A stretch of 62,876 bases of DNA, filler included, from Chlamydiia bacterium (GCA_903848235.1; 4 parts of 4 records of this genome joined end to end with filler, not necessarily neighbours in it), one strand, 5' to 3'; shown: positions 54,563-62,876, numbered from the whole stretch's first letter. The notes: generated by a model from the sequence alone, not told the origin. Numbers and translations: made by a program.

Positions 54563-54999
54563 ATTTTTTATCTTTTGGCTGATGAGTCGCTTGACGAACA
54601 TTGGAGTTGATGCTTTTGAGATGGGAAGATCAATAGCACGATGTGCTGGGGATGGAAAAGGCTGCTAGTGCCAATCAATCTTGACGATATTATTTTTTTT
54701 AACTCCCTCTAAATTCCTCGTTTACTATGTCAACAATCAATTTTAACTTTCATTGGACCAACCACACCTTGAGATGAAGAAAACCTCACCAAGGGCATGC
54801 TGTGAAGATTTAGGGCCATCCCGGAGGTCTGCCGCAGCCCTATCTTTCTATCTCTGGACTTTTCGTCTCCCCAAACTATATGCCAAGGCTACAGATTCAA
54901 TGGCGCATGTCAAGATCACTCGGTAACGCTCAAAATCCTTGAGTGTAATTCACTAGTGCATGTAGCGTGCTGATAAAAACCATGATGAGGACGGAGACC

Positions 55000-55191
55000 A
55001 TGGACCCACTAATTTCAATAGAAGAGGCCTGCGCCTTGCTGAAGATGAGTAAGCCGGCCCTATATGGCTGTGTGCGACAGAAAAAGATACCTGCATTCAA
55101 GTTCCAACGACGGTGGAAGTTCCAGAGAGCGGCGCTTGAAAAATGGGTTGAACAGCAAATGGAAGAAAGCAATAAAACCATAAAGCAATAA
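55000..55191 (+). CDS. Excisionase-family (HTH_17) DNA-binding protein
   Basis: LISIEEACALLKMSKPALYGCVRQKKIPAFKFQRRWKF; GGAG RBS. Confidence 0.85.
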   Translation: MDPLISIEEACALLKMSKPALYGCVRQKKIPAFKFQRRWKFQRAALEKWVEQQMEESNKTIKQ

Positions 55192-55199
55192 GGGTTGCC

Positions 55200-55946
55200 A
55201 TGAGCAGAAAGATTTGCGTGGCCCTATCCAAGGGTGGTGTTGCAAAAAGTTCAACTGCCGTTTCCATATCTCACGGATTGGCCATGGCAGGCAAGAAGGT
55301 GCTGCTCGTCGATACAGACGATCAAGGACAGGATGCTTTTCTTCTTGGGATACCTGCGCAGCACGGACTCGCTGACGTCATTGTTGAAGACATGTGTGCG
55401 GCTGATGCCATATGCAAAGCACGTGATAATTTATGGTTGCTTGCTGGAGGCAAGGCATTGGCTGGAGTCAAACGATCAATTGGAAGAAAAGATTTTGGGG
55501 CTGAGCAAACATTGTCTGATGCCCTTGCCCCATTAAAAGATCAGTTTGATTTCGTAATTATCGACACCTCGCCGAGTTGGGACACTCTGACAATCAACTC
55601 ACTATTCTACTGCACCGAGGTGTTGACCCCAGTGAGCTTGGAAGTTTTGACATTGAATAGCCTTCTAGAGTTCTCTGAAAGGCTTAAGAGCGTCCAGGCA
55701 TACAACAAAGGTCTCAAGCATTCGTATCTTGTTCCAACATTCTGGGATAGACGAGTGAAGAAATCGTCAGAAATCCTGGATCAACTCAAGAAGCATTATC
55801 CAAAACAGCTCTGTGACCCTATTCGATATTGTGTCCGCATCTCCGAATCTGCTGGCTTTGGCAAAACTATATATGAGTATGCCCCGTCATCGTCGGGAGC
55901 AAAAGATTACCAAAAAACTGTGCAAAGGATACTTAGTCATGAGTGA
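55200..55946 (+). CDS. parA: ParA/Soj partition ATPase (type Ib-like, no N-terminal HTH)
   Basis: KGGVAKSS deviant Walker A, VDTDDQG, IIDTSP. Confidence 0.93.
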   Translation: MSRKICVALSKGGVAKSSTAVSISHGLAMAGKKVLLVDTDDQGQDAFLLGIPAQHGLADVIVEDMCAADAICKARDNLWLLAGGKALAGVKRSIGRKDFGAEQTLSDALAPLKDQFDFVIIDTSPSWDTLTINSLFYCTEVLTPVSLEVLTLNSLLEFSERLKSVQAYNKGLKHSYLVPTFWDRRVKKSSEILDQLKKHYPKQLCDPIRYCVRISESAGFGKTIYEYAPSSSGAKDYQKTVQRILSHE

Positions 55947-56352
55947 CAGGCAGGCAACACCGGATGTTTTAGGACAGCTCATGTCAGGGAGCGCACTCGA
56001 GGAAGAAAGCAATAAAGCAATAAAGCCAGCAGTACAGCGAGCAATAAAGCAACCTCACCGTAAAGCAATAAATACAGCCAGCAATAAAGAGGTGACGGAA
56101 ACTTCACCAATAGTGCGTTCTGTGAGCGCTGAAGGTCTAAAGGAAAAGGCAACGTTCAATCTCCCAATAAAGACACTTGAAGAGCTTGAGGACAAATGGA
56201 TGGAGATTAGAAAAATGGCGGGGAATAAGCAGATATCGAAAACCTTGATCGTAGAGAAGGCCCTAGAGATGGCTTTTGAAGAATTTGACGGACAAAAGCA
56301 AGAAAGCAAGCTTTATTCCAAGCTTGCTAGCAATAATGCCATAAAGCAATAA
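55939..56352 (+). CDS. Probable centromere-binding partner of ParA (RHH-like C-terminus)
   Basis: Overlaps the parA end; disordered N-terminus, then KATFNLPIKTLEELEDKW...SKTLIVEKALE (strand-helix-helix). Confidence 0.65.
   Translation: MSDRQATPDVLGQLMSGSALEEESNKAIKPAVQRAIKQPHRKAINTASNKEVTETSPIVRSVSAEGLKEKATFNLPIKTLEELEDKWMEIRKMAGNKQISKTLIVEKALEMAFEEFDGQKQESKLYSKLASNNAIKQ
56006..56089. repeat. AAAGCAAT-type repeats (parS-like); further clusters at 55166-55191 and 56295-56354
   Basis: Multiple AAAGCAAT/CCAGCAAT units in 4/8-bp register. Confidence 0.7.
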
Positions 56353-56374
56353 ATACATCGATAATGGGGAGACA

Positions 56375-57469
56375 ATGCCAAAAAGCAACAAAAGCGTACC
56401 TGCAATAGTGCAAGAAGGCGACTTACTTCCACAAAAAGAATATGCCGATACCCTTGCAGGACTAAAAAAACAGATTCAGGAGAGCCAACTTAGGGCCATC
56501 ACCTCAGTCAATAAGGAACTGGTCCGCCTATACTGGACAATTGGGAAGACGATCGTTGAGAGACAGAAAGGCGGTGGATGGGGCAGCAGCTTTATTGAAA
56601 AACTAGCGAAAGACCTCCAAAATTCTTTCCCAGGAGTAGAGGGTTTTTCTAGGGCAAATGTGTTCAGGATGAAGGCGTTCTTTTTGGCCTATGAAAAAGT
56701 CGCACAGGCTGCGCGACAATTTGATTCTCTACCAATTTTATGCATTCCCTGGGGCCACAATATACTCCTCCTGCAGAAGATAAAAAACGATAATGAGAGG
56801 CTCTGGTATGCCTCAAAAGCCATCGAGCATGGCTGGAGCAGATCGATGCTCGAAATATGGATAAAATCAGATCTCTACAATCGTGAGGGGAAGGCTATCA
56901 CCAACTTTCAAAAGACCCTCCCAGCTTCACAGTCAGATTTAGCACAACAAGTTCTCAAAGACCCCTACAACTTCGACTTTCTCACTCTTCAAGAAGATCA
57001 CCTTGAAAAAGACCTTGAGGATGGACTTGTAGGGCATATTCAGAAGTTTTTATTGGAACTTGGGCAAGGCTTTGCCTTCTTAGGAAGACAGTTTCCTATC
57101 ACAGTGGATGGTGACACTTCCTATATCGACCTACTTTTCTATCACACGAAGCTCAGGGCATATATCGTCGTGGAACTCAAGGCCAGAGCGTTTAAGCCCG
57201 AAGACACAGGGCAGTTGAATTACTATCTATCAGCAGTAGACGACATGCTGAAGCACCCTACAGACACCCCGACCATAGGCATTTTGCTGTGTAAAACAAG
57301 GAGTAAGGTCAAGGCTGAGTATGCATTTAGACATATAGGGAGGCCTATTGGGATTGCAGAATACGAAACCATGTTGACGAAAGCATTGCCCAAGGACATG
57401 AAGTCCAATTTGCCGACCATTCAGGAAATTGAACAGGAACTTGAGAAAGGCCAGGATATGGCAAATTAA
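56375..57469 (+). CDS. YhcG/DUF1016 PD-(D/E)xK nuclease-domain protein
   Basis: VNKELVRLYWTIG, KDPYNFDFL, FLLELGQGFAF, IDLLFYH, VELK, GQLNYY. Confidence 0.93.
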   Translation: MPKSNKSVPAIVQEGDLLPQKEYADTLAGLKKQIQESQLRAITSVNKELVRLYWTIGKTIVERQKGGGWGSSFIEKLAKDLQNSFPGVEGFSRANVFRMKAFFLAYEKVAQAARQFDSLPILCIPWGHNILLLQKIKNDNERLWYASKAIEHGWSRSMLEIWIKSDLYNREGKAITNFQKTLPASQSDLAQQVLKDPYNFDFLTLQEDHLEKDLEDGLVGHIQKFLLELGQGFAFLGRQFPITVDGDTSYIDLLFYHTKLRAYIVVELKARAFKPEDTGQLNYYLSAVDDMLKHPTDTPTIGILLCKTRSKVKAEYAFRHIGRPIGIAEYETMLTKALPKDMKSNLPTIQEIEQELEKGQDMAN

Positions 57470-61701: not shown

Positions 61702-61910
61702 GTGTAATAACCCTGGAGGTGATAGATGTCGATCTGCAGCGGCTGTTGGAAGCGCACGCGGCACAAATGGATGAAATGTTGGACGCTCCTGAAGGATCCC
61801 AAGAGAGAGGGTGTTTTTTGAGCCGGTGTGAGTTCATCGCGGCGAAGATTAGGCGTGCGTTTAGGGCAAAGGATTTTGGCACTTCTTCGAATAATGTTTT
61901 TACTGATTAG
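61698..61910 (+). CDS. Hypothetical protein
   Basis: ATGA overlap with the upstream gene. Confidence 0.55.
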   Translation: MSVITLEVIDVDLQRLLEAHAAQMDEMLDAPEGSQERGCFLSRCEFIAAKIRRAFRAKDFGTSSNNVFTD

Positions 61911-61944
61911 TTTAGAATAAAAACAAAACATGTGAGATACAATT

Positions 61945-62232
61945 GTGGAGATTTCGAATTTTAAGAAAGTAAATAGTGGGTGTTTGATTTGTTGCTTTGA
62001 TGTATCTATCCCTGAATGGGGGTTGACTATCGCAGAGTGCAAGCTCTTTGAAAAAGATGGGAGAAGGTGGGTTGGTCTCCCCAGTAAGCAGACTTCTGAC
62101 AGGAGGTATGTCGAATTGGTGTCTTTGAGTAAGGAGATGAAGGCAAAGTTTGAGGTTTCGTGTTTGACGAAGCTGGCGTCGCTCCTTGCGCAGCATGAGA
62201 CCCTTATCTCATCGTCCTCCGTACCTTTTTAA
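61945..62232 (+). CDS. Small phage-type protein, SpoVG-like pattern
   Basis: LTIAECKLFEKDGRRWVGLPS resembles the SpoVG-fold beta motif. Confidence 0.55.
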   Translation: MEISNFKKVNSGCLICCFDVSIPEWGLTIAECKLFEKDGRRWVGLPSKQTSDRRYVELVSLSKEMKAKFEVSCLTKLASLLAQHETLISSSSVPF

Positions 62233-62301
62233 TTAATTATTTGAATCCCTATCCATGTCGAGGTAGGATCAAGAAAAACAAAGTAAGGGAAAGATTTAAT
62301 T

Positions 62302-62730
62302 ATGGGTGATGTTAATAAAGATGTGAAGGCTGCGAATAGCGTGAAGGGAAGGGGAGGTAGACCAAAAATTGAGTTAGATGAGCGGCAGATTCGAGAGCTG
62401 GCATCAATGGGCTGCCCCCTGACTGAAATTGCCTCCGTGATGGGCGTTCACGTTGACACCATTCGGGATAATTACTCCAAAGCCATAGATGAGGGCAGGG
62501 AGTGTGGGAAAACATCGTTGAGGAGGGCCCAGTGGAAGTTGGCCCTCTCTGGTAATTCGCAGATGTTGATTTGGTTGGGGAGGTTTCATCTTAGTCAAAG
62601 GGAGGAGATCAATTTTACCTCATCCGAGCCTGAGGTGCGACAGTTGCTCGAGCAATGGGAAGTAGCAACGAAGAAGAAGAGTAGCTTTGACAGAGGTAGG
62701 GAAAACAATGTGATTGCAATGGGGAAATAG
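62302..62730 (+). CDS. Phage terminase small subunit-like HTH protein
   Basis: GRPKIELD...LASMGCPLTEIASVMGV...GKTSLRRAQWKLALSGNSQMLIWLG. Confidence 0.65.
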   Translation: MGDVNKDVKAANSVKGRGGRPKIELDERQIRELASMGCPLTEIASVMGVHVDTIRDNYSKAIDEGRECGKTSLRRAQWKLALSGNSQMLIWLGRFHLSQREEINFTSSEPEVRQLLEQWEVATKKKSSFDRGRENNVIAMGK

Positions 62731-62876
62731 ATCGCTAGTCAGTGAGTTTGACGTAAATATACCAGACAGCTGCCAGCGCCATGTCGATCATGAAATCTCG
62801 ATTAAAAAATACCATGCACAAACCTTCAGGCTTATTTCAATATCTTTAGGAGTAATATCTTTTATCAGCGAATAAG

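Follow-up and report, generated by a model that had tools for sequence, protein, structure and literature searches.

Contig C111 fills positions 54563..62876 of the stretch of DNA analysed here (the window, 62,876 nucleotides), which is a chain of contigs from one genome bin of a Chlamydiia bacterium with filler between them. The finding described here is this whole contig, 8,314 bp in which all predicted genes lie on the plus strand and all reading frames are intact, with a GC content of 0.445 versus 0.475 for the bin. Ten of its proteins were scanned against Pfam and PHROG. The original prediction had described a co-directional module that runs from an excisionase-like helix-turn-helix (HTH) gene through a partition pair, a YhcG gene, a primase-helicase, a putative replication initiator (Rep) and a perfect 4x22-bp iteron array to an HTH gene and a gene for a terminase small subunit (TerS). 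All of these parts lie where it had placed them, the perfect iterons included; two open reading frames (ORFs) that it had omitted, 61698-61910 and 61945-62232, have to be added.

54563..54829, no strand: left end common to a second sequence variant (2 differences; the variant diverges past 54829)
54967..55191, plus strand: excisionase-type HTH_17 protein (Pfam 3.5e-15; phrog_66 excisionase)
55166..55191, plus strand: AAAGCAAT-type repeats just 5' of parA, candidate centromere or operator
55200..55946, plus strand: ParA partition ATPase, short form (phrog_164 1.6e-36)
55939..56352, plus strand: ParA partner, 137 aa, start overlapping the parA stop
56375..57469, plus strand: YhcG/DUF1016 PD-(D/E)XK nuclease (match 8e-63)
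57686..59695, plus strand: fused primase-helicase with CHC2 zinc finger, TOPRIM and DnaB_C (DnaB-type ATPase)
59698..60870, plus strand: Rep, 390 aa, predicted winged-helix fold of RctB/pi/RepE, no Pfam family
60904..60991, plus strand: four perfect 22-bp iterons
61012..61039, plus strand: 3.5 copies of an AT-rich 8-mer repeat, a candidate unwinding element
61414..61701, plus strand: second HTH (the 'AlpA-like' gene), sub-threshold HTH_17 match (E 9e-4)
61698..61910, plus strand: 70-aa ORF without Pfam or PHROG family, candidate interference factor by position only
61945..62232, plus strand: 95-aa ORF, weak SpoVG-like match below cut-off (E 0.014)
62235..62876, no strand: block of 642 bp that contig C274 repeats at its end with 95% identity; C111 and C274 stop at the same base
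62241..62279, plus strand: promoter-like element with two hexamers at a spacing of 17 bp followed by CAAGAAAAAC, aligning with the pre-terS element of phages L015 and L016
62302..62730, plus strand: TerS, 142 aa (phrog_309 1.7e-7)

We consider it probable that C111 is a terS-only phage satellite-plasmid of an environmental chlamydia, packaged by a tailed phage with a P22-type portal. Fragments of a tailed phage occur in the same bin, and this phage is the likely source of the captured terS.

The terS cassette and its phage relatives

The TerS of C111 has an N-terminal HTH, a helical core and a conserved C-terminal segment. Its family is TerS by context, because homologs precede the gene of the large terminase subunit (terL) in two of 23 viral loci (L032 and L037); this and the PHROG match bear out the earlier TerS-like assignment. 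At ten of the 23 loci terL lies about 8 kb off on the opposite strand, and 11 are stretches without terL. A terS apart from terL is thus normal in these phages, and therefore the missing adjacent terL is by itself no sign of a satellite. Compared with solved structures, the TerS model had no clear match (best Z 4.9; Sf6 TerS Z 4.2), and in BFVD it retrieved mostly uncharacterised caudoviral proteins, with one TerS-named row (E 4.4e-5). No close terS occurs on any plasmid of PLSDB.

The gene lies in the block that C111 shares with C274, a contig of the same bin whose replicon differs from that of C111 and encodes a D5-type helicase and a TOPRIM protein. The promoter-like element, which was left unscored by a generic promoter scan, marks the start of a captured promoter-terS cassette; in that scan, promoter and terminator counts were at chance level. 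The TerS proteins of C111 and C274 share 92% of their amino acids, with a nonsynonymous divergence (dN) of 0.034, a synonymous divergence (dS) of 0.215 and a dN/dS of 0.16; for codons 18-142, the core, dN is 0.010, dS 0.212 and dN/dS 0.05. These values indicate that terS is under purifying selection, and the HTH is nearly invariant between the two proteins (98%). Broken lone terS copies do exist in other chlamydiae (L085, L101, L097) and would fit a terS left without function by the decay of a prophage. For C111, this reading is largely refuted by the selection signal, and against it stand also the kept promoter and the intact frames, so that we give it hardly any credence.

In a tree of 85 TerS rows, the proteins of C111, C274 and the circular relative L102 fall into one clade of 16 rows. 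This clade is nested among phage TerS and is sister to the TerS of phages L015, L016, L103 and L107 with a support of 100/99. The tree omitted L131, a spurious match, as well as short or broken copies. A second tree, in which 42 of the 85 rows were kept, agrees on the sister relation (support 98); the alignment has few columns, as a tool warning pointed out. Sequences P0012-P0014 combine a TerS of the satellite clade and a satellite-type HTH with phage-type ends, and are possibly recombinants from an arms race between satellites and helpers.

Between C111 and L015, TerS identity is 68% over the whole protein, falls to 61% for the HTH and rises to 78-79% for core and tail. Such a protein might also serve a plasmid or island as an anti-phage decoy, which joins the TerS rings of the helper or ties up its TerL and lowers phage yield while the plasmid itself stays unpackaged. 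The high identity of core and tail to the helper type would suit a decoy, and neither a pac site nor a capsid-size gene was identified on C111. The neighbouring YhcG, likely defence cargo, matches the candidate defence family PDC-S02 and is 69% identical to the copy on contig L043. A decoy has no need of a DNA-binding HTH, however, and the HTH is intact and conserved between C111 and C274. Three replicon types, moreover, have primase, origin and terS in the order typical of satellites. We therefore regard the decoy as quite unlikely and a packaged satellite-plasmid as the better account of the cassette.

Replicon, contig ends and the circular relative L102

The structure model of Rep (predicted local distance difference test score 87) matches RctB (Foldseek E 3.6e-5, Z 11.7, root-mean-square deviation 4.4 over 232 aligned), the pi initiator (Z 9.0) and RepE, and the Atlas search returned RPA/TrfA rows. 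Therefore the protein, which the original prediction had called a putative Rep, is modelled as an iteron-type initiator by fold, at a sequence identity of 10-13% to RctB, pi and RepE. It defines a separate family without a Pfam model, with 51 homologs that a profile search raises to about 181 representatives. Of 401 genomes from the bin's phylum, 16 carry the family; no viral locus in IMG/VR and no PLSDB plasmid matched it. A DnaB gene lies directly 5' of Rep in all eight GTDB relatives, five of which have a period-22 array 3' of Rep detected by Tandem Repeats Finder, with a related core repeat seen by eye in two more. Perfect tandem repeats of at least 15 bp arose in none of 200 shuffles. Arrays of 8-9-mers similar to that of C111 follow the iterons of relatives L043 and L045. 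Rep relatives L039 and L042 are tRNA islands bounded by attachment (att) repeats, and L043, L045, L159 and L161 are ParA-bearing contigs. The helicase half of the C111 primase-helicase is 52% identical to the Rep-linked DnaB of tRNA island L155. After the Rep relative of L045 the origin array is greatly expanded (L045:11089-11937), with units of 44, 48 and 92 bp and five of 22 bp, resembling the mixed sites of RctB origins. Identification of Rep as Pgp2 was rejected: the hhalign probability was 0.4 and a 90-sequence profile scored pGP2 below shuffles.

The partition genes are accompanied by further AAAGCAAT-type copies at 56006-56090 and 56341-56352. The ParA is 33% identical to that of L043. 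Its 137-aa partner, likely a centromere-binding protein, has no Pfam or PHROG family above cut-off, and an Atlas search gave leads only. The HTH_17 protein upstream (possible starts GTG 54967, ATG 54988 and ATG 55000) is likely a regulator or recombination directionality factor. The second HTH is of the same family as the HTH genes of C274, C72, L102 and the portal-adjacent gene of the candidate helper. Its earlier description as AlpA-like was loose, since only the sub-threshold HTH_17 match was found and the AlpA family PF05930 had no match anywhere in the bin, whereas an E. coli positive control matched. The 95-aa ORF has a 29% homolog in phage contig L094.

None of the ten scanned proteins is an integrase, in line with the original prediction of a separate contig with no integrase visible, and none matched a capsid-morphogenesis gene, two small ORFs being without family. 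The 8.3 kb hold no terL, portal, capsid, tail or lysis gene. The sequence continues just 146 bp 3' of terS. Sample contigs hold second variants at both C111 ends, i.e. the ends run into shared sequence, which explains the assembly breaks. The left end has no other copy within the bin, and an end-overlap search in the bin gave C274 as the sole partner and no match for the loose-end motif. The 3' end and the iteron pattern of the relatives had no match in IMG/VR, and C111 carries no terminal repeat. The depth of the sample contigs is not to be taken as copy number.

A complete relative shows what such an element can look like. L102 has a 127-bp terminal repeat that closes it into a 7,612-bp circle, and it encodes an HTH protein, a 95-aa ORF, an AAA_25 helicase, two primase-like proteins (one with a Toprim_3 match), a TerS 71% identical to that of C111 and a convergent tyrosine recombinase. 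L102 had no match to the helper-type portal, capsid, scaffold and TerL queries, and its seven proteins had no Pfam or PHROG match to capsid protein E or head maturation protease. At 44% identity to pGP8 and 51-54% to other chlamydial copies, with which it groups, the enzyme is by sequence a chlamydial Pgp7/8 recombinase, a family for which chlamydiae are the only reported source (PMC7846284). No Pgp7/8 recombinase of the L102 type was matched in the bin of C111. C72, a contig of the bin with 75-87% identity to L102, ends short of the position expected for terS and is a third element, of L102 type. The circle, its lone terS and its chlamydial recombinase support the satellite/plasmid reading of the original prediction, which for the open-ended C111 is a probable one.

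Several observations weigh against that reading. Helper-type phages also have terS separated from terL, so that of the earlier claim of a lone TerS only the absence of terL from the contig stands, and the short sequence after terS limits even this. The HTH has diverged only moderately faster than the rest, and satellite TerS differ from each other similarly in all three regions. Given the phage-like ends of P0012-P0014, phages may be among the members of the satellite TerS clade. Genes for capsid size or packaging interference were not identified. Since both ends are open, terL or structural genes could lie beyond them, and C111 could be part of a bigger element that encodes a terL itself, either a terS-terL island or a plasmid-like prophage. 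The sample contigs extend about 500 nt further, Rep relatives L040 (a prophage-like fragment) and L155 (a tRNA island with terS and terL on a 3.9-Mb contig) carry terL, and two chlamydial plasmids carry a phage gene group with terminase (PMC7846284). Nevertheless, L102, the nearest complete relative, has no terL, and the TerS of terL-bearing elements are distant or unrelated. Furthermore, terS and one HTH are all that C111 has in common with helper-type phages, and its Rep is absent from IMG/VR. A larger terL-bearing element is therefore unlikely.

The other terS genes of chlamydiae bear on the same question. The TerS profile matches 30 of 400 phylum genomes. Reading about 10 kb on each side of 20 of the 29 other chlamydial loci gave 12 with terL and 8 without; the 12, which speak for the larger element, are all distant from the C111 clade. 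Among the eight, L095 is an att-bounded tRNA island that measures about 10.1 kb and encodes an integrase, an HTH protein and DnaB, and L097 is an att-bounded tRNA island riddled with insertion sequences; the remaining ones include two broken and one prophage-looking locus. A PF03237 terL was found in none of five tested genomes with terL-less terS loci. Because their TerS lie outside the C111 clade, these chlamydial loci are parallels to C111 and not members of its group. Eleven chlamydial genomes (L082, L083, L086-L089, L091-L093, L099, L100) share a module of a small nuclease-like gene, a DNA methylase, a 162-aa TerS, TerL and a Pgp7/8-type integrase, to which L086 adds a DUF1073-type portal, Mu F, DUF2213 and a capsid gene. 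It is possibly a plasmid-prophage family or gene transfer agent; as a member of the C111 family it was rejected, its TerS belonging to a distant clade. The bin holds more integrase islands with primase/helicase genes (C176, at tRNA-Leu, C161, C134 and C181), and the end of C134 encodes a small protein of a family that weakly matches a TerS PHROG in L039. Separate from C111, a DDE transposase (DDE_Tnp_1_5) with a 17-bp inverted repeat lies at 53351-54462 of the window, at the end of the preceding contig.

Candidate helper phages and the probable chlamydial host

The dsDNA helper phage that the original prediction implied gains support from the sister relation of the C111 TerS to complete tailed phages and from phage fragments in the same bin. 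Bin contig C48 encodes a portal 99.7% identical to that of L015, plus genes that adjoin terS in L015, and contigs C213 (TerL 85% to L030) and C189 fit the same phage group. Five genomes of this helper group in IMG/VR are 35.9-39.3 kb long and 96-100% complete, and none of the five has a PF00589 integrase. The helper-group phages encode an initiator and a DnaB of their own, besides a P22-like portal and a capsid of the N4-gp56 family; with the query used, the helper capsid gene was not found in the bin. Several capsid genes of the group are split, and the terL frame at L117:492-1934 gives way, past the nuclease motif, to unrelated sequence in the manner of an inserted intein or intron. A more distant tailed-phage contig of the bin, C232 (L046; 14.7 kb), encodes TerS (35%), TerL, portal and tRNA-Thr; three small hydrophobic paralogs precede its portal, and one of its proteins is 72% identical to one of the G285 prophage.

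In this genome, G285, the gene set of a distant phage of P22-portal type is embedded in a 137-kb contig (G285:C1, about 43000-78500; L190, L181, L182), and its chlamydia-like flanks repeat gene pairs of the bin of C111. Its terL appears to be in two pieces, and neither a tyrosine integrase nor an att repeat turned up. The helper portal type occurs in eight of 400 phylum genomes.

A second link to chlamydiae is a non-coding motif 5' of the phage portal, made up of two DnaA-box-like words, a short spacer, GAA repeats and an AT run, which matches a conserved, origin-like site of chlamydial chromosomes. Chlamydial oriC has been described next to hemB (PMC4009838), and tandem DnaA boxes followed by DnaA-trios have been described as well (PMC8287927). 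A loose pattern matched three times in the bin, once in C48 and twice in host contig C239, versus 0-1 times per shuffle in five shuffles. The strict pattern with one mismatch matched 13 of 201 phylum genomes, the bin of C111 not among them, and gave no control match. Eight of ten motif loci that were pulled share the gene neighbourhood of C239 and one other adjoins a hemB-like gene, the gene names at these loci being a reading of the sequences. The exact motif had 10 matches in 2.9 million viral contigs, all P22-portal-type, six in the helper group and four nearer C232, and none in 50,697 GenBank phage records. Sites include C48:1975-2045, L015:4391, L016:3082, L021:11783, L031:8862, L034:7192-7248 and others, and C239:7698-7985 on the host side. 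The phage copy may act as a second origin or titrate host DnaA.

The bin, 93% complete, encodes the chlamydial histone-like protein Hc1 (E 1.7e-20). Still, the host assignment of C111 is indirect, and a mis-binned contig or mis-binned phage fragments would imply a non-chlamydial host. The contamination of the bin is 4.85%, and the integrase-rich contigs C46, C257 and C114, whose composition stands apart from the host, are likely part of it. The tetranucleotide fit of C111 to the bin is the seventh lowest among 63 contigs of similar size, a measure that does not separate host from phage origin. A capsid homolog of 69% identity is filed under a Bacteroidetes metagenome-assembled genome, so that binning alone is a weak guide to the helper's host, and one Rep locus is titled Acidobacteria. 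The chromosomal motif scan covered genomes of the bin's phylum only. When 20 kb of phage sequence served as a query against 390 scored phylum genomes, dnaB and the origin motif were matched and, among the matches listed, there was no spacer-like one; the sole CRISPR candidate of the bin is a coding tandem repeat. On the other side, the Rep family is integrated at tRNAs of chlamydial contigs, one of them 3.9 Mb long, and the Acidobacteria-titled locus shares its tRNA-Phe site, a neighbour gene and a 77%-identical integrase with the chlamydial locus L095. Together with the Pgp7/8 recombinase of L102 and the origin-like motif common to phages and chlamydial chromosomes, this makes mis-binning very improbable. 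The original prediction was to fall if the contig binned with a non-chlamydial organism, if the last gene were not TerS-like or if a terL-portal-capsid module followed; none of these was found, the last being judged on the contig only.

Proposed life cycle and comparison with known systems

We propose that C111 persists as an iteron plasmid. Rep would bind and open the iteron origin, from which the primase-helicase would replicate the element, and ParA, its partner and the AAAGCAAT repeats would segregate the episome. Upon infection, the phage-like captured promoter would fire terS with the packaging programme of the helper. The DNA-binding head of TerS, which has diverged, may then recognise a pac site of the satellite; core and tail, which are better conserved, would engage the helper TerL, leading to packaging of satellite DNA. 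Concatemers might fill normal heads, as no capsid-size gene was seen; five L102 copies amount to 38 kb and helper-type genomes to 36-39 kb, which is suggestive only. More tentatively, and at slightly less than even odds in our judgement, environmental chlamydiae could host a full tailed-phage ecology, with 36-39-kb phages that lack a tyrosine integrase and carry the origin unwinding element of the host, together with terS-only satellite-plasmids that swap replicons around one captured promoter-terS cassette and move as concatemers in helper heads. If true, plasmid genes would thereby be transduced within eukaryotic host cells.

Electron-microscopy reports describe phage-like particles in amoeba-associated chlamydiae. 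These intracellular bacteria are known mainly for very small phages with single-stranded DNA. Cultivated chlamydial phages are reported to be Microviridae (PMC9753089), and the open-access literature, as far as it was accessible, yielded no account of chlamydial satellites or of genomes of tailed phages from chlamydiae. Chlamydial plasmids are reported to move between lineages and to carry phage-derived genes (PMC7846284). Most of them are without an obvious transfer route, and a satellite that uses the packaging motor of a tailed phage would supply one. Near-complete candidate helper genomes are already present in IMG/VR, which makes tailed-phage infection of chlamydiae directly testable. Two further outcomes are a Rep family that Pfam does not model and a non-coding marker of the host with which more chlamydial phages could be found.

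C111 resembles several known systems in part. Like phage-inducible chromosomal islands (PICIs) and the related SaPIs, it has a primase-replicase, an origin and then a helper-homologous TerS, without terL or virion genes in the 8.3 kb present (PMC10085698, PMC11921389), and the SaPI's own TerS is described to redirect the helper TerL (PMC11921389). PICIs are reported from chromosomes of other phyla (PMC10085698, PMC11921389). Unlike them, the contig holds no integrase, no AlpA, MerR or Stl regulator and no capsid-morphogenesis gene, and has ParA and iterons instead; because the regulator test failed and integrase and capsid genes are missing from the contig, we do not file C111 as a PICI, although it would work in the manner of a PICI or SaPI. 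The 13.3-kb plasmid pMP1 of Marinitoga piezophila travels in normal-sized tailed-phage heads without a capsid gene and is described without a TerS homolog (PMC11921389), whereas C111 brings its own TerS. Chlamydial plasmids (pCTA, pWc) share with C111 a DnaB-type helicase followed by a gene of similar size, ParA and about four 22-bp origin repeats (PMC7846284). The C. trachomatis plasmid repeat, 3.9 x 22 bp, has a different unit sequence, helicase and ParA are just 26-27% identical, and the C111 Rep is not detectably Pgp2. Its Rep rather resembles RctB of Vibrio chromosome 2, pi of R6K and RepE of F, all with tandem winged-helix domains and adjacent 22-bp repeats.

The nearest described kind is the PISP of Vibrio. 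This phage-inducible satellite-plasmid (TG93) of Vibrio crassostreae measures 11.1 kb and, like the C111 contig, has parA, a plasmid Rep, a small terminase and a regulator and no integrase (PMC13230959). It also carries genes for capsid protein E and for a head maturation protease (PMC13230959), neither of which had a Pfam or PHROG match among the ten scanned proteins of the incomplete C111. C111 in turn differs by a Rep of predicted RctB/pi fold with iterons and a primase-helicase, by HTH_17 regulators and by a TerS of the P22-portal lineage. On the side of C111, circularity is seen in the relative L102 only. PISP is proposed to persist as a plasmid and to be packaged by a helper (PMC13230959). 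Satellite-plasmids are thus already described in Vibrio (PMC13230959), and C111 would extend them beyond this genus in a minimal, terS-only form.

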